The translations under genes were made by a program, and so were the position numbers. Positions 593 through 60,415 of a DNA stretch of 61,822 nt are shown piece after piece; the stretch's first letter is position 1, and each line of letters begins with the position of its first letter. The notes beneath the pieces were generated by a model, which saw only the letters and a program-made list of their open reading frames with translations, searched no databases and was not told where the DNA came from. This stretch comes from a virus (Duplodnaviria > Caudoviricetes), in the IMG/VR virus record IMGVR_UViG_3300046373_000181, positions 1 to 61,822 of that record; one strand, 5' to 3'.

Positions 593-695
593 GCGACCGA
601 GCCGAAGCCCGAAAGGGACTTCTGATCTATCTGGTGAGTGCCGTAGCGTTTGCGGGAATCACCCTGTTTTTTCTTAACGTATACTAACTACCGTC

Positions 696-944
696 ATGAA
701 CTATCAACTATTCTGCCATATCCTGAACGACAGTCTGATTTTCGAGCCAACACCACTGGTCACCCCGGACGTATGGGAGGAGTGGCAACAGGAATTCTAC
801 ACCGATTTTAAGGAGCATAGTGTTAGTCGCGACGCATCACTATCCGATAAGGAGAAAGTCACCCAGTGGGTGCGGGACGCCTTTTCGGAATACAGTTTTG
901 ATACCCATAATTTTCAGCTAAAGCCAGAATTTATACAGCCATGA
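696..944 (+). CDS. Hypothetical protein
   Basis: ATGA overlap with the downstream MTase. Confidence 0.7.
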   Translation: MNYQLFCHILNDSLIFEPTPLVTPDVWEEWQQEFYTDFKEHSVSRDASLSDKEKVTQWVRDAFSEYSFDTHNFQLKPEFIQP

Positions 945-1699
945 AAGTAATGGATCTATTTGCAGGAATCGGCGGCTTTTCCGTGGCCGCTCACGCAATG
1001 GGATGGGAAACCGTCGTGATGGTTGAATGGGACAAAAAACGCCGACTATGGCTACAAAAAATCTATCCTCAGACCTTTATACATGGAGATATTGACACCT
1101 TCGATAATAGCCCCTACCGCAACTCAATTGACCTTATTTGCGGTGGTGAGCCCTGTCAGGGAAATAGTATTGCCGGAAACCGTAAAGGAGTATCCGACCC
1201 CCGTTTCAAGTGGCCGGCTTATTTACGGCAGGTTGATGAGGTCGCCCCGCTTTGGGTCGTTAACGAAAATGTTACCGGTTCAATTTCTAACGGAATACTG
1301 GACCGAAAGATCAGTGATCTGGAAGCAATCGGTTACGCCTGCTGGCCGCCCCTTGTTATCCCTGCACGTGCAGCCGGATGCCATCACGAACGGGAGCGGG
1401 TATATCTCGTTGCCTACTCCCTGCGCACAGGACGGCGGCAACTCAACACTTCCGCCCTCCCAGCTGAGCAAACGAAAGGGAATGTATGGAACGGTGCCCA
1501 GCGCCCTGCTCCACTTGGGCCAGTTACCCGGTACGCCAATTCATCCGAGATTTTACGAGCGGCTGATGGGCTTTCCAGTGGGATACCTGCCTCTGACAGA
1601 AACAAGGCCATTGAGTCCTACGGAAATGCCGTAGTACCCCAGATTCCCTACAAGATTTTTCAAGCTATCCAGCACACCGAAAACACCACCACACCATGA
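941..1699 (+). CDS. C5 cytosine DNA methyltransferase 1, alpha chain (lacks motif IX/TRD)
   Basis: Motifs I DLFAGIGG, IV GEPCQ, VI ENV, VIII HERERVY, X YGNAVVP. Confidence 0.92.
   Translation: MKVMDLFAGIGGFSVAAHAMGWETVVMVEWDKKRRLWLQKIYPQTFIHGDIDTFDNSPYRNSIDLICGGEPCQGNSIAGNRKGVSDPRFKWPAYLRQVDEVAPLWVVNENVTGSISNGILDRKISDLEAIGYACWPPLVIPARAAGCHHERERVYLVAYSLRTGRRQLNTSALPAEQTKGNVWNGAQRPAPLGPVTRYANSSEILRAADGLSSGIPASDRNKAIESYGNAVVPQIPYKIFQAIQHTENTTTP
1023..1634 (+). CDS. Nested +1-frame beta chain of MTase 1 (carries motif IX)
   Basis: 203-codon open alternative frame with LPTPCAQDG and HPRFYERLMGFPVGY; start uncertain. Confidence 0.75.
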   Translation: MNGTKNADYGYKKSILRPLYMEILTPSIIAPTATQLTLFAVVSPVREIVLPETVKEYPTPVSSGRLIYGRLMRSPRFGSLTKMLPVQFLTEYWTERSVIWKQSVTPAGRPLLSLHVQPDAITNGSGYISLPTPCAQDGGNSTLPPSQLSKRKGMYGTVPSALLHLGQLPGTPIHPRFYERLMGFPVGYLPLTETRPLSPTEMP

Positions 1700-1863
1700 C
1701 CACCTACGATACCACCCGCCCCCGTCGCCACCTGATCAACACGCTGCGGGCCCTTGTGCTGATCGCCTTCGTCTGGCTCTGGCACAGCAAATGGAAAGAG
1801 CGCTCCCCGCGTCTGGCCGTGCAGGCGGAGGTGGTGTGCAGTAGTCGAGCGATACCGAAATGA
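1696..1863 (+). CDS. Small hypothetical membrane protein (55 aa)
   Basis: ATGA-coupled to the MTase stop; MTTYDTTRPRRHLINTLRALVLIAFVWLW. Confidence 0.5.
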   Translation: MTTYDTTRPRRHLINTLRALVLIAFVWLWHSKWKERSPRLAVQAEVVCSSRAIPK

Positions 1864-1887
1864 TTTACAATCATAAATAATCTATCA

Positions 1888-2697
1888 ATGGAATTAGACC
1901 TGTTTCCAGAACACAAAGATTACTCCGGGCAAAAGGTATTGCTAGGCCTTTCGGGTGGTATTAATTCCATGGCTGTACTGTGCTGGCTAGCAGAGGGGCC
2001 AAAAGAGTTCTATCCGGCTGAACTACATCTTTACTACACGCACCTTGTTGAGCACTCACCGGACACATTTCAGTTTGTGGCAGATGGGGTAAGGTGGGCT
2101 CGGAAAGCCTTTCCCTGTGTAATCTTTAGGATGTCAAGGGGTTCAGCTATTGAGTTGTTTAGGCAACAAAAGATGATCCCCCACCCAACTAAGCCACTAT
2201 GCTCAATCCGGCTGAAGATTGAACCCGTAGAACGTTACATGGTCGAAAATGGCATAACAGTAAACTTGGTGGGCTACGTAAAGAAAGAAGCCGTTCGGCG
2301 GGCAAGCAGAATGGCAATGCGAACCAAATCTGAATTAAACAATGTGATTTCAAAGGGAATAAGCGTTTCCTTTCCTATCTCGAAATACTCTGATAATTGG
2401 TGCTTTACTATAGTCGATAAGCACATCGGTTGGCATCCGGTGATTTACGATATAAGGGAACGTGGCAAAAAAGTGTTTACGCACAATAACTGTCTGCCTT
2501 GTATGCATATGGAAGAACCTGACCTAAAGGCGACAGCTAAACACTACCCTAAATACATGAAAAAAGCGCTAGACCTTTCGGGTGAGCTGAAGCGGCATTG
2601 GGGACGTGATGCCGATTCTTTTTACACAACATTTGGAAGGGAGGACTATGAAAAGGAATATAAGCCACAGCCCTGTGAAGTTTGTGCATTTGATTGA
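1888..2697 (+). CDS. PP-loop (PAPS reductase-like) protein with Cys motifs
   Basis: LGLSGGINS PP-loop, LCSIRLKIEP, HNNCLPC, C-terminal CEVC. Confidence 0.8.
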   Translation: MELDLFPEHKDYSGQKVLLGLSGGINSMAVLCWLAEGPKEFYPAELHLYYTHLVEHSPDTFQFVADGVRWARKAFPCVIFRMSRGSAIELFRQQKMIPHPTKPLCSIRLKIEPVERYMVENGITVNLVGYVKKEAVRRASRMAMRTKSELNNVISKGISVSFPISKYSDNWCFTIVDKHIGWHPVIYDIRERGKKVFTHNNCLPCMHMEEPDLKATAKHYPKYMKKALDLSGELKRHWGRDADSFYTTFGREDYEKEYKPQPCEVCAFD

Positions 2698-2862
2698 CCC
2701 CGCATAATGGCCAAACGCATTGAGAAGCCCGCCACGCTGCGGGTGGTGCAGGGGATTCTGCCCAATACGGGTATGCCCATGAAAATCACCATCTACGTCA
2801 ACGGGGCGATACGGATCGAACGGCAGGGAAGGATATAACGTGTATTTATTAACCAAAGCAAA

Positions 2863-3609
2863 ATGAGCGAATTAACGATGGGTTCTCTCTTCGCCGGAAC
2901 GGGGGGATTCGAGTTGGCAGCCGAACGAAACGGCATCAAACCCCTTTGGAATTGTGAGATAGACGAACTGAAGCGACAGAAATTAAAAAAGAACTTTCCT
3001 GATGTACAACAATACGCCGACATCCGAGATTTGCACTACCCCCAACATGTTGATATCCTCACCGGGGGATTCCCCTGTCAGGACATTAGTTCAGCCGCCG
3101 GTCACCGAGCCACAGGAATTAACGGCCAAAGGTCGGGGCTATGGAAGCACTACGCCCGTTTACTGGGGGAAGTTAGACCTTCAGTCATCGTCTTTGAAAA
3201 CAGCCCAAGAATCGTTGTTTCCGGACTCGAGCAAGTCTTATGCGATCTTGCCCGACACGGGTATGATGCTGAATGGCGCCCTTTTTATGCTGCCCAATTC
3301 GGATACAATCACTATCGAAAACGAACATACGGCGTTGCCTTCGCCCGGAGCTCAGGATGGGAGAGTTGTCTTAAAAAAGGTGGAATCCTTGAAAAAGTAT
3401 TATCAGGCAAAAATCTCCCACCAAAATCACCTCCTGAAGCAGTGCCAACTAAACGGTATGACCGCCATTCAGACTATGAATCTGTACGAATGGATGATGG
3501 GTTTTCCAAAGAACTGGACAAGTTTAGAATCCACGATTGTGGAAACGCTGTAGTTGTCGACATTCCACAAGCCATCTTTTATCAACTCAAACTTCACTGG
3601 CCAATCTAG
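2863..3609 (+). CDS. C5 cytosine DNA methyltransferase 2, alpha chain (lacks motif IX/TRD)
   Basis: SLFAGTGG, GGFPCQD, FENS, HYRKRTY, CGNAVV. Confidence 0.92.
   Translation: MSELTMGSLFAGTGGFELAAERNGIKPLWNCEIDELKRQKLKKNFPDVQQYADIRDLHYPQHVDILTGGFPCQDISSAAGHRATGINGQRSGLWKHYARLLGEVRPSVIVFENSPRIVVSGLEQVLCDLARHGYDAEWRPFYAAQFGYNHYRKRTYGVAFARSSGWESCLKKGGILEKVLSGKNLPPKSPPEAVPTKRYDRHSDYESVRMDDGFSKELDKFRIHDCGNAVVVDIPQAIFYQLKLHWPI
3002..3553 (+). CDS. Nested +1-frame beta chain of MTase 2 (carries motif IX)
   Basis: 183-codon alternative frame with LPSPGAQDG and LYEWMMGFPKNWT. Confidence 0.75.
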   Translation: MYNNTPTSEICTTPNMLISSPGDSPVRTLVQPPVTEPQELTAKGRGYGSTTPVYWGKLDLQSSSLKTAQESLFPDSSKSYAILPDTGMMLNGALFMLPNSDTITIENEHTALPSPGAQDGRVVLKKVESLKKYYQAKISHQNHLLKQCQLNGMTAIQTMNLYEWMMGFPKNWTSLESTIVETL

Positions 3610-3624
3610 CCAACAATCAACCCC

Positions 3625-4140
3625 ATGCATGCAATCCTCTACGACGGGCCAAAACCCGCTGCTGTCACCTTTGCTGACCACAAATTACCCGCATTGCAAA
3701 AGAAATACGGCAATTTGCTCCACGTACTCAGTGGCGATTTGCCCCAGCAGCCCGCGGCCGTAGGTATTTCCAAGCCCACGCTGGGTAAACTCGAAGGGCT
3801 TGGTCCCGTGCCGGGCACAAAACCTCCGAGGGATAAAAAGCCGCCAAGGGAAAAGAAGGAGAAGCCGCCCAAAGTGCTGAAAGGAAAACCCCCGGTGCAT
3901 CCCCTGAAAGGCATCACCCCCGCCAACGCCAAAGCGGTCGTCAACATCACCACCGGGGAATATTACCCAAGTGAATTAGTGGCCGCCAAGGCGTTCGGGG
4001 TGCATCTGTCGACGGTGGGCAAGTAAATTGATCGCTTCAAGGATACGGGTAAGCCCATTATGTTCAGTGGGCAGTCCATCCGCCTGGCTACCGTGAAAGA
4101 GCAACTAGCCGGTAAGTACATTCCCCTTAGAGAGCAGTAA
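3625..4140 (+). pseudogene. NUMOD1-like DNA-binding protein with an in-frame TAA at 4024-4026
   Basis: KAVVNITTGEYYPSELVAAKAFGV motif; the frame stays open 37 codons past the stop, up to the next gene. Confidence 0.55.
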
Positions 4141-4152
4141 ACAATAGCAATC

Positions 4153-4341
4153 ATGGCACAGAAACGATTAAAAATAAACCTCGAACTGCATCAGGTCGGG
4201 GAGGGGCGCACCTTTCTAAACTACTGGAACGCGCGTAACGGGGATGATGTAGCCTGCGAAGTGGTTGACGGTAGGTTGATTCACGAAGGCACCGAAATTA
4301 CCCTGGCTGAATTTATTGATAAAGTCGTCTCCAAGTTCTAG
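4153..4341 (+). CDS. Hypothetical protein
   Basis: ORF in operon. Confidence 0.6.
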   Translation: MAQKRLKINLELHQVGEGRTFLNYWNARNGDDVACEVVDGRLIHEGTEITLAEFIDKVVSKF

Positions 4342-50321: not shown

Positions 50322-51788
50322 CTAAAAAAAAGGTTTGCTTTTGGTTTCGTTTCGATTCCTGACCAGAGTATCCAGCTCTTTATCAACCAAATGCCCCGTC
50401 ACCTTGACGTAGTTGCGCTCGGTAACCCCGATGGTTGAATGCCCTAACGCATTGCTTACCGCCTTGATGCTATAATCTTGCAGAAAGATAACACCCGCTG
50501 TTTTTCGTCCGATTTTGGGCGTTAAGCGTTTTTCAAACCCGATCAGCTCCGCAATCTTCTCCAGATGGTTAATCATGGTGGTGTCAGAAATAGCCGGTGG
50601 GGCCTCCCCTATCACCTCATCCCATAAATCAACAAGTTGACTCGTAATGGGGATGTTACACTCGGAGTTATTTTTCTCGCGGCGGATAATGATCTTCGGA
50701 TTCCCGCCGGGCGTTCGGGCCTCGTAGGTCTCTTTGGCACTGGCGTAGCGGATCGCGTCGGGTAGATCCATGCCCGTTAGGCAAATGAGGCGAAACCACC
50801 AATGCGTTACTTTATAGCGGCCGGGCACTTCAAGCGTAAAGAGTCTCTCAATATGAATAGGTTCTAAAAAGTACACGTCTTTGGCCGGATTGCCCGGCAG
50901 GCCCAGATCGCCAATCGCGCCTACCGGGTTCCGCTCGATAAGGTGCTGCTTGCGCAGCCAGGTCAACAGCTCACAAACCACCGAGCAGTATATCGTCGCC
51001 GTACCGGGACTCATCCGCTCGTTTCGATGCTTGCAGCGGGGATTGCCAGAGGGCTGACAAAGCAGCCACTCGTGGTATTTCTCCACCCAGTAGGGCGTTA
51101 GGCTCATCACCGGTATGTGCATAGAGAGCGGGTATCTAGCCAGCCAGTCCGAGGCTGCCTTACGTTTATTATACGTCGCCAGCTTCATCTGACCCGTGGC
51201 TTTCTTGCCTAGTGTCAGCTCGATTAGATACGCGGCCATCGCTTGCCGGATCGGCGTGTCGGGTCCCAGGCTCGCGTGGGCCAAGCCGTTCTGTGCCAAC
51301 AAGGGCGATGACTTGCCCGGCCGGACCTGCTTGGCTTTGCGAGATAAAAACTTCGGCGGATACACGAACTGATCCCCCTGCACGGCGGGGGCATTACCGG
51401 TCAAGTATTCGAACTTGACCGAATCGGTCGTGGGCCGGGGCGCGCGCTGGGCATCGTAACGCATTTGCTGTTTGGACTGAATATCTTTTAGATCAATTTG
51501 AATGCGTAGGATGCGTTCGTTAAGATCTAACGTCGGCGCATCCCGTCCCCTAAGCCGGTATTTTTTCTGATCCCAGGCCCGAAGATCGATAAGCAATATA
51601 TTTCCAAAACTTACCTCACCCGTGCCCTGATGAATGAACCGTTCACGGGCGACAAAGCCAGCATCCCGAACCGAATTTACGGTGAGCCTGACTAGTAAAT
51701 AACGCTCATGCGCAGAGGCACTGGCGCGGGGTGGAGGAAGCTTTGTTTTAAACTGAATAGTGGCAGGCATTCGTAGACGTATCAACAT
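50322..51788 (-). CDS. int: Tyrosine recombinase/integrase with an arm-binding N-terminus
   Basis: LVRLTVN..WDQKKYR; TPKIGRKT, LGHS..TERNY. Confidence 0.88.
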   Translation of the reverse strand: MLIRLRMPATIQFKTKLPPPRASASAHERYLLVRLTVNSVRDAGFVARERFIHQGTGEVSFGNILLIDLRAWDQKKYRLRGRDAPTLDLNERILRIQIDLKDIQSKQQMRYDAQRAPRPTTDSVKFEYLTGNAPAVQGDQFVYPPKFLSRKAKQVRPGKSSPLLAQNGLAHASLGPDTPIRQAMAAYLIELTLGKKATGQMKLATYNKRKAASDWLARYPLSMHIPVMSLTPYWVEKYHEWLLCQPSGNPRCKHRNERMSPGTATIYCSVVCELLTWLRKQHLIERNPVGAIGDLGLPGNPAKDVYFLEPIHIERLFTLEVPGRYKVTHWWFRLICLTGMDLPDAIRYASAKETYEARTPGGNPKIIIRREKNNSECNIPITSQLVDLWDEVIGEAPPAISDTTMINHLEKIAELIGFEKRLTPKIGRKTAGVIFLQDYSIKAVSNALGHSTIGVTERNYVKVTGHLVDKELDTLVRNRNETKSKPFF

Positions 51789-58003: not shown

Positions 58004-58381
58004 ATGAACACAACTATCGGCGGTCTGGCTACGACCGGATCAAACATCAATCACTTTCAGTCTCGCTTGGCAACGGCAATAGAAGACGTGGTTCAACGCC
58101 CCACGCTGTACGGCTCACCCATGGCACAAGCAAATCAGGGAAATGCCCAGTGGGTGTATGGTGAACGTCTGGCTGCTTTGTTCGGCGTTTGCATCAGCGT
58201 TGAGGGTGCCAGTACCGAAGTGGTTCACTTCTCTGTATTTGCTGACTGCGCTTTCTCCTGCAACGTATCAAATGTAACTGTGACGGGTGTTCGTTACGGC
58301 CGGTTCCACATGAGCATGACGCTGGAGGATCTCGAAAAACAAGAAGCTATCGAAGAACTATTTAATAAATCTGGTATATGA
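58004..58381 (+). CDS. Hypothetical protein
   Basis: Start at MNTTIG, after the promoter. Confidence 0.65.
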   Translation: MNTTIGGLATTGSNINHFQSRLATAIEDVVQRPTLYGSPMAQANQGNAQWVYGERLAALFGVCISVEGASTEVVHFSVFADCAFSCNVSNVTVTGVRYGRFHMSMTLEDLEKQEAIEELFNKSGI

Positions 58382-59208
58382 GTACGAACACATCCCTAAT
58401 ACCTACGACGACCGCCGATATGATGTCGGTCGCTACGAACCTAGCTAAATCCGGCTTCTTTCAGGATGCCCGCGAAGCAACCCAGGCATTTGCAAAAATT
58501 CTTGCTGGTGCTGAACTAGGAATTCCGCCGTTTGCTGCCATGAGTGGCATTTACATTGTGAAAGGAAAACCCCAATTGGGCGGGGTTTTGTTGGGTGGCT
58601 TGGTTAAACGGTCCGGTAAGTATGACTATAAAGTTGCTGAACTTAGTGATGCCCGTTGCTCGATTGACTTCTTTCAGGGAACTGAGCTTATCGGAAATAG
58701 TACATTCACCATTGAGGATGCCAAAAAAGCCGGAACTCAAAACACCGATAAGTTTCCTAAAAACATGCTCTATGCACGGGCTATGTCGAACGGTGTAAAA
58801 TGGTACACGCCAGATGTTACGAACGGCCCCGTTTATGCTGAAGGAGAATTTGAAGAGGATGCCCCCCGCGTTCAAGATACAACAGCAGAAGTTGTTCACG
58901 AAGCTAAGCCTGTATCAACGGGTGCTGAGTTAGACCCCGAAGTTATTCGGCAAATGGGTATCTGGACTGACAACGTAGATGTGCTTTATAATGATGAAAC
59001 CCGCCGTACCAATCCTTCATCATGGGATGTATCGTTTACAGCCCTTGGTTCAATCGCGAACTTACCTTCAACCGAGAAGAACAAGAAGTTTGTAGCGCTT
59101 AAAAACTTTGCTGCCGAATTCAATATCGGTTGGGATAAAGACGCAAAGAAGTTTTTTGTTGCAATGCCCGTAGATGAGCCAGAAACCGCTGAAACCGTCG
59201 AAGCCTGA
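58378..59208 (+). CDS. RecT/Bet-like ssDNA annealing protein
   Basis: KILAGAELGIPPFAAMSGIYIVKGKP, KFPKNMLYARA. Confidence 0.82.
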   Translation: MSTNTSLIPTTTADMMSVATNLAKSGFFQDAREATQAFAKILAGAELGIPPFAAMSGIYIVKGKPQLGGVLLGGLVKRSGKYDYKVAELSDARCSIDFFQGTELIGNSTFTIEDAKKAGTQNTDKFPKNMLYARAMSNGVKWYTPDVTNGPVYAEGEFEEDAPRVQDTTAEVVHEAKPVSTGAELDPEVIRQMGIWTDNVDVLYNDETRRTNPSSWDVSFTALGSIANLPSTEKNKKFVALKNFAAEFNIGWDKDAKKFFVAMPVDEPETAETVEA

Positions 59209-59816
59209 TGCAACACGTAATGATTGACATTGAGACAATGGGCAATACGGCAGGTTCCGCCATTGTCAGCATTGCAGCCGTTCAGTTCGATTTAGAGACC
59301 GGAAAGATGGGACTAATGTACGAAGAGCATGTCTCACTCGAAAGTTGTTTAAAGGCGGGGCTTTCTCCAAATGCCAGTACAATCCTTTGGTGGCTTCAAC
59401 AGGATGAAGCAGCGCGCAAAGAATTAGTAGTGGGTCAAACTAAAGCCCGCTCCCTCCGCAATGTACTTAGCAGTTTTCAGCTTTGGATTGAAACAACGCA
59501 CAAAGATCCTATTGTGTGGGGGAATTCAGCCAGATTTGATTTAGGTATACTGGAAAGCGCCTTTGCAGCCTGCAATATTCCTTTACCTTGGAAATTCTGG
59601 AACGAGCGGTGCGTTCGCACTCTGGCTGAATTAGCACCAGAAATCAAACGAAAAACGAAGTTTCAGGGTGTTGCTCACCATGCCATTGATGACTGCGTTC
59701 ATCAGGTCCGCTATACGGTTGCCACTTACCGAAAGCTTAAGGGATTGCCTGAGGTTGAGATTAAGCAGCCTGAGCCAGTCGCGAGTGTATTTAGCGACGA
59801 CGAACTCCCATTTTAG
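59208..59816 (+). CDS. DEDDh 3'-5' exonuclease with an SSB-like acidic tail
   Basis: VMIDIETMG, WGNSARFD, HHAIDD; ends DDELPF. Confidence 0.9.
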   Translation: MQHVMIDIETMGNTAGSAIVSIAAVQFDLETGKMGLMYEEHVSLESCLKAGLSPNASTILWWLQQDEAARKELVVGQTKARSLRNVLSSFQLWIETTHKDPIVWGNSARFDLGILESAFAACNIPLPWKFWNERCVRTLAELAPEIKRKTKFQGVAHHAIDDCVHQVRYTVATYRKLKGLPEVEIKQPEPVASVFSDDELPF

Positions 59817-59920
59817 AAATTGAGTAGAGTTTGGGCTGTGATTCGAAAACGGCGGGGTACTACCTCGCCCGCTTTCTTCGCCGATGCCCAGGTACATACA
59901 CATTTAAACACATAGCAATC

Positions 59921-60415
59921 ATGAAGACTTCTGAGAGATTTAATCGGGCTGTGCAAGCACTTGTCAGTTCATATTTCAACAGTACCCTTGTCAAGGGTAA
60001 TTGCAGTGCATGTGCGGTGGGCAATATTGTTGCTGCCGGAATTGAGGGTAAAGTTTATAGCAAAGAAATAGGCAACTATATCACATATCGTTGCGATAAA
60101 CCTAATTATGGTTGGCGTAATGTATTCCTTACTGTGGGTGATGAGCAAGGTATTTGGCCTCATAACTACGAAGGTATTCCAAAAGAAATAATTGATGCTA
60201 CCGGCTATTCATGGGAACAATTAGCCATGGTTGAAAAGACCTTTGAAGTCAATACAAAAATCTTTTTTGACGATTACAAAAGGTACACCCCCGAGCAAAT
60301 CGACGCCGATCAATATGAGGGCTTAATGGCCGTGGTCGATGTTCTCTGCCAGATCGAAGGCATTGACGACGCGAGCGAATACAAAGCCCTGTTTGCGGGC
60401 AAGATTTTGGTTTAA
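59921..60415 (+). CDS. Hypothetical phage protein
   Basis: CSACAVGNIV, ATGYSWEQL. Confidence 0.75.
   Translation: MKTSERFNRAVQALVSSYFNSTLVKGNCSACAVGNIVAAGIEGKVYSKEIGNYITYRCDKPNYGWRNVFLTVGDEQGIWPHNYEGIPKEIIDATGYSWEQLAMVEKTFEVNTKIFFDDYKRYTPEQIDADQYEGLMAVVDVLCQIEGIDDASEYKALFAGKILV

Follow-up and report, generated by a model that had tools for sequence, protein, structure and literature searches.

Two C5 methyltransferase genes of a temperate tailed phage enclose conserved +1 reading frames that probably encode the small domains of two-chain enzymes

The alpha/beta C5 methyltransferase M.EcoHK31I reportedly goes back to work by Lee, Kam and Shaw in 1995; the genes for the two subunits of M.AquI adjoin each other. 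M.EcoHK31I, from E. coli HK31 and with the target YGGCCR, is described as having its beta chain encoded wholly within the alpha gene in another frame (PMC2836561, PMC3404938), and removal of the beta starts by changes silent in alpha is described as abolishing methylation in vivo, which co-expression restored (PMC2836561). M.AquI (CYCGRG) is described as a two-subunit C5 methyltransferase whose larger chain carries motifs I-VIII and whose smaller chain carries IX and X, and the accessible text of that source names no frame overlap (PMC3404938). Here, we analyse the window, that is, the whole 61,822-nucleotide stretch of IMG/VR record IMGVR_UViG_3300046373_000181, a 61.8-kb linear viral record with an estimated completeness of 71%. 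It contains two C5 methyltransferase genes (gene 1 and gene 2), whose frame 0 products are called alpha1 and alpha2, and each gene encloses a long open reading frame (ORF) in the +1 frame, beta1 and beta2, respectively (Table 1). It is highly probable that they encode two M.EcoHK31I-like two-chain enzymes in which beta supplies the whole small domain.

Both outer proteins carry motifs I, IV (with the catalytic Cys), VI and VIII on a single chain, and the residues of motifs I (FxGxGG), IV, VI and VIII (RxR) are invariant in two family alignments. The Pfam profile PF00145 matches alpha1 (E 1.1e-36) at residues 1-183, corresponding to profile positions 1-190 of 324, and alpha2 (E 2.2e-34) at residues 5-186, corresponding to positions 2-169 of 324. 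Motif X also lies in frame 0 of both genes, as weak PF00145 matches at profile positions 298-323 and 303-323. Frame 0 of both genes gave no PF00145 match at profile positions 190-298, the part that holds the variable region and motif IX, and neither of these elements was found on the chain that carries VIII and X. A first-pass annotation of the same DNA had described the outer proteins as running from motif VIII almost directly to motif X, in agreement with the profile, which covers the N-terminal 183-186 residues and motif X and nothing between. The two alpha proteins are 33% identical to each other.

The nested ORFs are not products of chance. The longest open stretch in the +1 frame comprises 204 codons in gene 1 and 188 in gene 2, compared with 49 and 33 codons, respectively, in the +2 frame. 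When the codon order of the outer gene was shuffled or its synonymous codons were resampled (2000 trials each), the +1 length of gene 1 was reached in 0/2000 trials of either kind, and that of gene 2 in one codon-order shuffle and three synonymous resamplings out of 2000 each. When the 707 stop-to-stop ORFs of at least 40 amino acids (aa) in the window were searched with a profile of +1 ORFs taken from 54 other viral loci, two of them matched, exactly beta1 (E 1.4e-14) and beta2 (E 3.3e-9). Since the shuffles almost never reach such lengths and the profile matches these two ORFs alone, both long +1 ORFs are beyond chance. The first-pass annotation had placed nested +1 ORFs inside two C5 methyltransferase genes at exactly the positions given by the ORF list, and had pointed out that they share the strings LP(T/S)PxAQDG and a motif IX-like YExxMGFP, both of which were found in both ORFs. 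Beta1 and beta2 are 35% identical over 78 residues (E 3e-7), and both match phrog_1008, labelled ‘DNA methyltransferase’ (E 1.6e-11 and 6e-10, respectively); among Pfam and NCBIfam models, no methyltransferase family was matched by either ORF.

The same annotation had located motif IX in the nested ORF. The motif is indeed there, but the chain carries far more than motif IX: it comprises the whole stretch between motifs VIII and X, with the variable region and IX, and ahead of it a conserved N-terminal part, the coding of which overlaps that of alpha motifs VI-VIII. In both genes, beta ends at a TAG made up from the pair of Val codons (GTA GTx) in the alpha motif X GNAVV, and in relatives the beta stop falls within about 4 codons of motif X. 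As a single sequence, beta1 retrieved only noise from the sequences of the PDB (best E 0.48, to capsid proteins). When 43 nested ORFs were combined into a profile and run against the same sequences, 11 of 11 matches were to M.HhaI, at residues 266-300, which is the motif IX segment directly ahead of motif X; at E 0.13 this likeness is weak but correctly placed, and only suggestive.

Selection acts on both frames, and its focus changes along the gene. Alpha2 relatives in IMG/VR are 48-54% identical to it, and pairwise variability per outer-frame codon position was calculated for seven gene 2 relatives in this range, outer position 1 being the wobble position of the +1 frame and outer position 3 its position 2. 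Over outer residues 1-93, position 1 is less variable than position 3 (0.45-0.71), the pattern of ordinary single coding. Over residues 94-133, both position 1 (0.29-0.40) and position 3 (0.23-0.34) are restrained, with constraint on both frames, and over residues 154-213, from motif VIII to X, position 1 lies at 0.35-0.54 and position 3 at 0.00-0.14, the signature of a constrained +1 frame. From motif X on, position 1 is again below position 3, which is again the highest, and the outer frame is the constrained one. Because variability switches to alpha position 1 between motifs VIII and X, the DNA there is preserved on account of the +1 protein, and the outer frame merely travels along. Over motif IX, a second, independent clade of 24 sequences showed this reversal too. 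For gene 1, a search of IMG/VR, metagenomes and genomes yielded no relative above 49% identity; its DNA after motif VIII was compared by frame score with eight loci (one further locus was unparsed), and the beta-frame alignment score exceeded the alpha-frame score in 8/8 comparisons (for instance, 156 vs. 41 against locus L030).

The outer frame is nonetheless maintained through this region. With the beta protein fixed and its synonymous codons resampled, the chance that alpha has no stop between motif VIII and the point where the nested ORF ends is 0.046 for gene 1, 0.094 for gene 2 and near zero for most relatives. Alpha was in fact free of stops in 54 of the 56 genes, compared with an expectation of 0.6; in both exceptions, the beta ORF extends beyond the natural alpha stop. 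Both frames are thus kept open by selection and, as alpha is open far above expectation, frame 0 is probably read straight through, joining motif X to motifs I-VIII. Codon conservation in both frames among homologues, which had been proposed as a check with the first-pass annotation, was borne out: both frames are open and constrained across relatives.

Within this branch of phage C5 methyltransferases, the dual-frame layout is the norm and not a peculiarity of the window phage. In a tblastn search with alpha1, 1225 of 50,697 phage records matched, and in 194 the match spanned 80% or more of alpha1; megablast of positions 900-3700 against the same number of records gave no match. Four of the four named phages examined (Bacillus yong1, Lactobacillus Lc-Nu, Sulfitobacter phiGT1 and Mycobacterium Spikelee) have both motifs in the +1 frame, as LLPTPxAS and MMGFPxGW. 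The IMG/VR survey took the best 80 of 557 confirmed relatives, 58 of which had a complete outer gene in the fetched stretch. Among these 58, motif X lies in frame 0 in 57, and the strict motif IX pattern is absent from frame 0 throughout, occurring in +1 in 54 relatives and in +2 in one. Three further relatives have one-residue variants of motif IX in +1 (57/58 with variants counted), and the fourth relative without the strict +1 motif, L079, has a frame change. Open stretches within alpha have a median maximum of 229 codons (79% of the gene) in +1, compared with 38 (13%) in +2. The length of the outer gene spans about 235-385 codons, with GC-rich relatives reaching about 500.

Several relatives show variations of this layout. 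In GC-rich relatives of gene 1 (six from IMG/VR, L010-L015, and three Sphingomonas genomes, L128-L130), alpha has about 400-500 residues, frame 0 between VIII and X reads as Gly/Arg/Asp-rich filler, and the +1 frame contains several PTPxA(S/R)D modules followed by WMMGYPPGWL; the repeated modules may be tandem recognition modules. In L009, the closest gene 1 relative (49%), the LWPTPSAND frame runs into motif X and motif IX stands in the third frame (positions 1727-2203), one frame change more than in the family layout. Four IMG/VR relatives of gene 2 (L017-L020) have a run of ten G directly after PCQ (about 1750-1770); in the near-identical L025 and L026 the run has nine G, so that alpha motifs I-IV read straight into the beta frame. 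The same fusion of an alpha N-terminus with beta is present, independently of L025/L026, in the database proteins P0003 and P0004. The G10/G9 difference could be due to sequencing error, phase variation or slippage.

Beyond these loci, the beta profile matched 42,248 protein clusters with an E-value cut-off of 0.001, of which 24,908 remained at 1e-10, the top matches being proteins of 203-660 aa in which the match begins near the N-terminus. None of the 10 top matches scanned has a Pfam family, and six matches looked up were either ‘hypothetical protein’ (two) or without a name (four). No Pfam or NCBIfam model covers the beta family. For beta2, eight homologues were found in 5.8 billion proteins, six of which are beta-only ORFs. 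The layout is common but mostly unannotated among phages. As a lead only, ESM Atlas neighbours were viral clusters without families.

Evidence for an internal start came from the relatives. In 36 of 54, a +1 ATG stands exactly 14-15 codons after PCQ, preceded by the purine-rich GGNAAAGAAG; the other 18 are without this consensus ATG. In 35 of the 36 cases the ATG is supplied by an Asp codon of alpha, which is GAT in all 35 and GAC in none, compared with 348 GAT to 444 GAC among the other Asp codons. Codon choice in the outer gene therefore serves the start codon of the inner one.

Predicted structures are consistent with a divided enzyme. Modelled alone with AlphaFold2, alpha1 reached an overall predicted local distance difference test score (pLDDT) of 83.1, with 90-98 for residues 1-160 and 92-96 for the helices at 217-250, whereas residues from about 161 to 215 had a pLDDT of 46-70 and no secondary structure. 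In Foldseek, the best match of this model was M.HhaI (E 1.8e-15; root-mean-square deviation 1.6-2.4 Å over 164-171 columns), with M.HaeIII also among the best; alpha1 thus has the large-domain fold of M.HhaI. AlphaFold pairs had been suggested as a check with the first-pass annotation, and its cognate part held for alpha1/beta1: the predicted complex scored 0.90 over three runs, against 0.00 for the best of three controls, a mark passed in benchmarking by 116 of 157 solved complexes and by 2 of 215 mismatched pairs. The runs shared at least 83% of contacts, with a partner pLDDT of at least 66. In the model, the closest contacts are those of beta 129-135 (motif IX) with alpha 223-234 (motif X) and alpha 15, and those of beta 63-65 with alpha 136-141, beside motif VIII. 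Since monomeric C5 methyltransferases have already been solved and the prediction used its own alignments, this result may owe as much to resemblance to the intact enzyme as to binding, or more.

Taken together, both-frame conservation, selection on the +1 frame, the motif IX match and the complex model support the proposal of the first-pass annotation that there are two overprinted alpha/beta enzymes. As we picture it, each gene would give two polypeptides from one stretch of DNA, alpha from frame 0 and beta from frame +1. Alpha would be the catalytic large domain, with motifs I-VIII, a disordered linker of about 55 residues without a function of its own, and the motif X helix. Beta would be translated from an internal start and form the small domain, with the variable, target-recognising region, including the LPTPxAxD segment, and motif IX; its conserved N-terminal part would precede the small domain. 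The two chains would assemble non-covalently into one enzyme, as in M.EcoHK31I, with beta motif IX packing on alpha motifs X and I in the model and a beta hairpin adding a strand to the alpha sheet beside motif VIII. In structures of monomeric enzymes, all specific DNA contacts are described as coming from the small domain (PMC3404938). If this also applies here, beta1 and beta2 should set two targets, and the phage would thus probably carry two enzymes whose target sequences are set separately by the two beta chains; exchanging alpha chains should add no specificity if recognition sits in beta. As to origin, a monomeric gene that tolerated two compensating frame changes around the small-domain coding is a plausible ancestor, in keeping with the described ability of inactive fragments of monomeric C5 enzymes to complement each other (PMC3404938).

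A bolder version, which we consider rather unlikely, is that beta is a free, exchangeable specificity subunit, so that either alpha serves either beta and possibly also the betas of co-resident prophages. If so, this branch would work as a catalytic plus a specificity subunit, and new targets could arise by swapping or recombining the nested ORF alone, including the LPTPxAxD modules repeated in some relatives.

Several points weigh against the two-chain reading. Neither window gene has the consensus beta ATG (gene 1 has TAT and gene 2 TTA at that place), and the candidate starts in Table 1 are guesses. The nearest relative of gene 1 is only 49% identical, and the codon-level evidence comes from gene 2 relatives and the second clade. 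In relative L029, a TGA at 1952-1954, arising from a CTG Leu codon and silent in alpha, interrupts beta after its MLPNSD segment and before LPTPAASD, where the close database relative P0005 has Ser, and frame changes occur in L009, L025-L027 and L079; this stop and these changes may be sequencing errors, decay or regulation. Folded alone, beta1 gave a poor model (pLDDT 67.6; predicted TM-score 0.26), as one would anticipate of a chain that depends on the other. The match to motif IX of M.HhaI, at E 0.13, is by itself non-significant. The alpha chain of M.EcoHK31I is described as containing the target recognition domain, and its beta as containing only motif IX; the one experimentally tested enzyme thus shares out its tasks otherwise than we propose here. 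Finally, we infer the translation of beta, its assembly with alpha, and the activity and specificity of the pair from sequences and models.

Other readings of the same layout fare less well. Two programmed frameshifts, +1 after motif VIII and -1 before motif X, could rebuild a monomer in one polypeptide: frames 0, +1 and 0 joined give the canonical order I-VIII, variable region, IX and X, and the end of the +1 ORF falls only a few codons from motif X (median offset -1 codon over 54 loci). However, a shifting ribosome has no need of a frame 0 that stays open through the +1 coding, as observed in 54/56 genes against 0.6 expected, and the frameshifted monomer is therefore disfavoured. It is also at odds with a +1 frame in which openness and constraint reach back about 60-100 codons upstream of motif VIII and which has a conserved ATG kept by codon choice, and with M.EcoHK31I, which works as two separately expressed chains; we regard it as highly improbable. 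Hardly credible, too, is the possibility that alpha by itself constitutes a minimal methyltransferase whose recognition loop is very short, the nested ORFs being untranslated shadows cast by a conserved outer gene. The VIII-X part of the alpha frame evolves as non-coding DNA while +1 shows the wobble pattern, the alpha linker is predicted to be disordered, alpha-preserving shuffles almost never yield such an ORF, motif IX likeness to M.HhaI lies in +1, and the GAT-only codon choice preserves the +1 ATG. All this stands against the facts that gene finders and most annotations give alpha only and that conserved alpha forces parts of the +1 sequence (LKTAQ mirrors FENSP, and GMM.NG mirrors GYDAEW).

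It is improbable, though less so, that the layout is real and one copy, most likely gene 1, is decaying, with its beta start lost and beta unmade. Gene 1 belongs to an isolated lineage, has TAT at the place of the consensus ATG, a divergent beta N-terminus without the SG.KC signature, and GEPCQ in motif IV instead of the GFPCQ of most relatives. Nevertheless, both of its frames are intact (alpha open against an expectation of 0.046, +1 open against 0/2000), the consensus ATG is also missing in 18 of 54 relatives, alternative starts with purine-rich upstream sequence are present, and the alpha1/beta1 complex is modelled with confidence. The least credible explanation is that beta is made as a fusion to the alpha N-terminus by homopolymer slippage after motif IV. 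Neither window gene has a homopolymer at that place, the product would be without motifs VI, VIII and X, and in L023 and L024 +1 stops lie between PCQ and the conserved beta part and are followed by an ATG, even though the G10 runs of L017-L020, the G9 runs by which L025 and L026 read alpha I-IV into the beta frame, and the database fusions P0003 and P0004 are what slippage would predict. Two chains from two frames thus remain the preferred reading.

The genome around the two genes is that of a tailed temperate phage, with genes for an integrase, tape measure, portal, major head protein, helicase, primase, RecT-like protein and exonuclease. The integrase and the RecT-like/exonuclease pair mark a temperate phage, and the methyltransferases, both at the left end of the window, probably share with these genes an early/replication module that wraps around the record ends. 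A gene resembling phosphoadenosine phosphosulfate (PAPS) reductases lies between the two methyltransferase genes; among 130 loci, such a neighbour was found only in four, which are copies of the window. A promoter and terminator scan of positions 600-4200 returned sites no more frequently than in shuffles.

Table 1. Positions of the two methyltransferase genes, their nested ORFs and other features of the window.
Feature	Position	Strand	Size	Motifs and landmarks	Basis or remark
Alpha1, C5 methyltransferase large-domain chain	941-1699	+	252 aa	I FAGIGG; IV PCQ (1151-1159); VI ENV; VIII HERER; linker of ~55 residues; X GNAVV (1622-1636)	ORF list and PF00145
Beta1, nested +1 ORF	1023-1634	+	203 aa from first TTG	LPTPCAQDG 1410-1436; motif IX FYERLMGFPVGY 1551-1586; conserved part begins near 1200; stop TAG 1632-1634	wholly inside 941-1699
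Candidate beta1 start	TTG 1170	+	154 aa	AGGGAAA 8 nt upstream	guess
Candidate beta1 start	ATG 1236	+	132 aa		guess
PAPS-reductase-like gene	1888-2697	+			phrog_424, E 3.6e-17
Alpha2, second C5 methyltransferase large-domain chain	2863-3609	+	248 aa	I FAGTGG; PCQ (3073-3081); ENS; HYRKR; linker; X GNAVV (3541-3555)	ORF list and PF00145
Beta2, nested +1 ORF	3002-3553	+	183 aa from ATG 3002	LPSPGAQDG 3335-3361; motif IX LYEWMMGFPKNW 3482-3517; +1 constraint begins near 3142; stop TAG 3551-3553	wholly inside 2863-3609
Candidate beta2 start	ATG 3002	+	183 aa		guess
Candidate beta2 start	ATG 3047	+	168 aa		guess
Integrase gene	50322-51788	-			
RecT-like/exonuclease gene pair	58378-60415	+			

The principle of a methyltransferase chain nested in another is already known, some nested coding sequences (CDSs) have been annotated and a PHROGs family exists. 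In two Paenibacillus larvae phages, Shelly (gp56) and Leyra (gp62), a nested +1 CDS (676-1380) is annotated inside a C5 methyltransferase gene (492-1529), as in the window, under the label ‘g55 internal gene’ (Shelly) or as a second ‘DNA-cytosine methyltransferase’; neither these annotations nor that of phrog_1008 state a second-subunit function. The accessible text of the Paenibacillus larvae phage genome paper makes no mention of the nested CDS (PMC6070908), and that of a 2025 paper on an HNH gene lying out of frame within an actinophage methylase mentions no second methylase chain (PMC11855218). Our literature search, with most subscription journals outside its coverage, returned no paper on the layout as a family trait.

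Standard annotation gives alpha alone, with the consequence that these methyltransferases seem to be without a recognition domain and the probable target-setting chain is overlooked. Recognising beta would improve the prediction of phage anti-restriction methylation and the reading of methylomes. The family is also a clean example from nature of two genes that overlap at length on the same strand of a double-stranded DNA phage and whose products would form one enzyme, and the two genes lying side by side in the window phage provide a direct test of subunit orthogonality.

Compared with the single-chain methyltransferases M.HhaI and M.HaeIII, which are encoded in one frame, the window genes share the large-domain fold, as modelled for alpha1, and a motif IX resembling M.HhaI 266-300, but divide these between two frames. 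With M.AquI they have in common two polypeptides split in the variable region; they differ in that motif X stays with I-VIII and the second gene is nested in +1. A split of the M.AquI type was considered and rejected for the window, where motif X is in frame 0 on alpha and beta stops inside the motif X codons. The closest likeness, one of layout and motifs, is to M.EcoHK31I, in which, as at both window loci (+1 in each), the second ORF lies wholly inside the first on the same strand in another frame, alpha carries I-VIII and X, and beta carries IX. Both chains are described as necessary in M.EcoHK31I (PMC2836561); that both would be made and required here has indirect support from selection on the two frames, the conserved start codon of relatives and the predicted complex. 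Unlike M.EcoHK31I, the window genes have the VIII-X region selected in the beta frame and an alpha linker predicted to be disordered; no target recognition domain was found on alpha, and the conserved LPTPxAxD segment lies in beta. They also differ in being orphan phage genes with no restriction partner in view, and in that two such genes are present in one genome.

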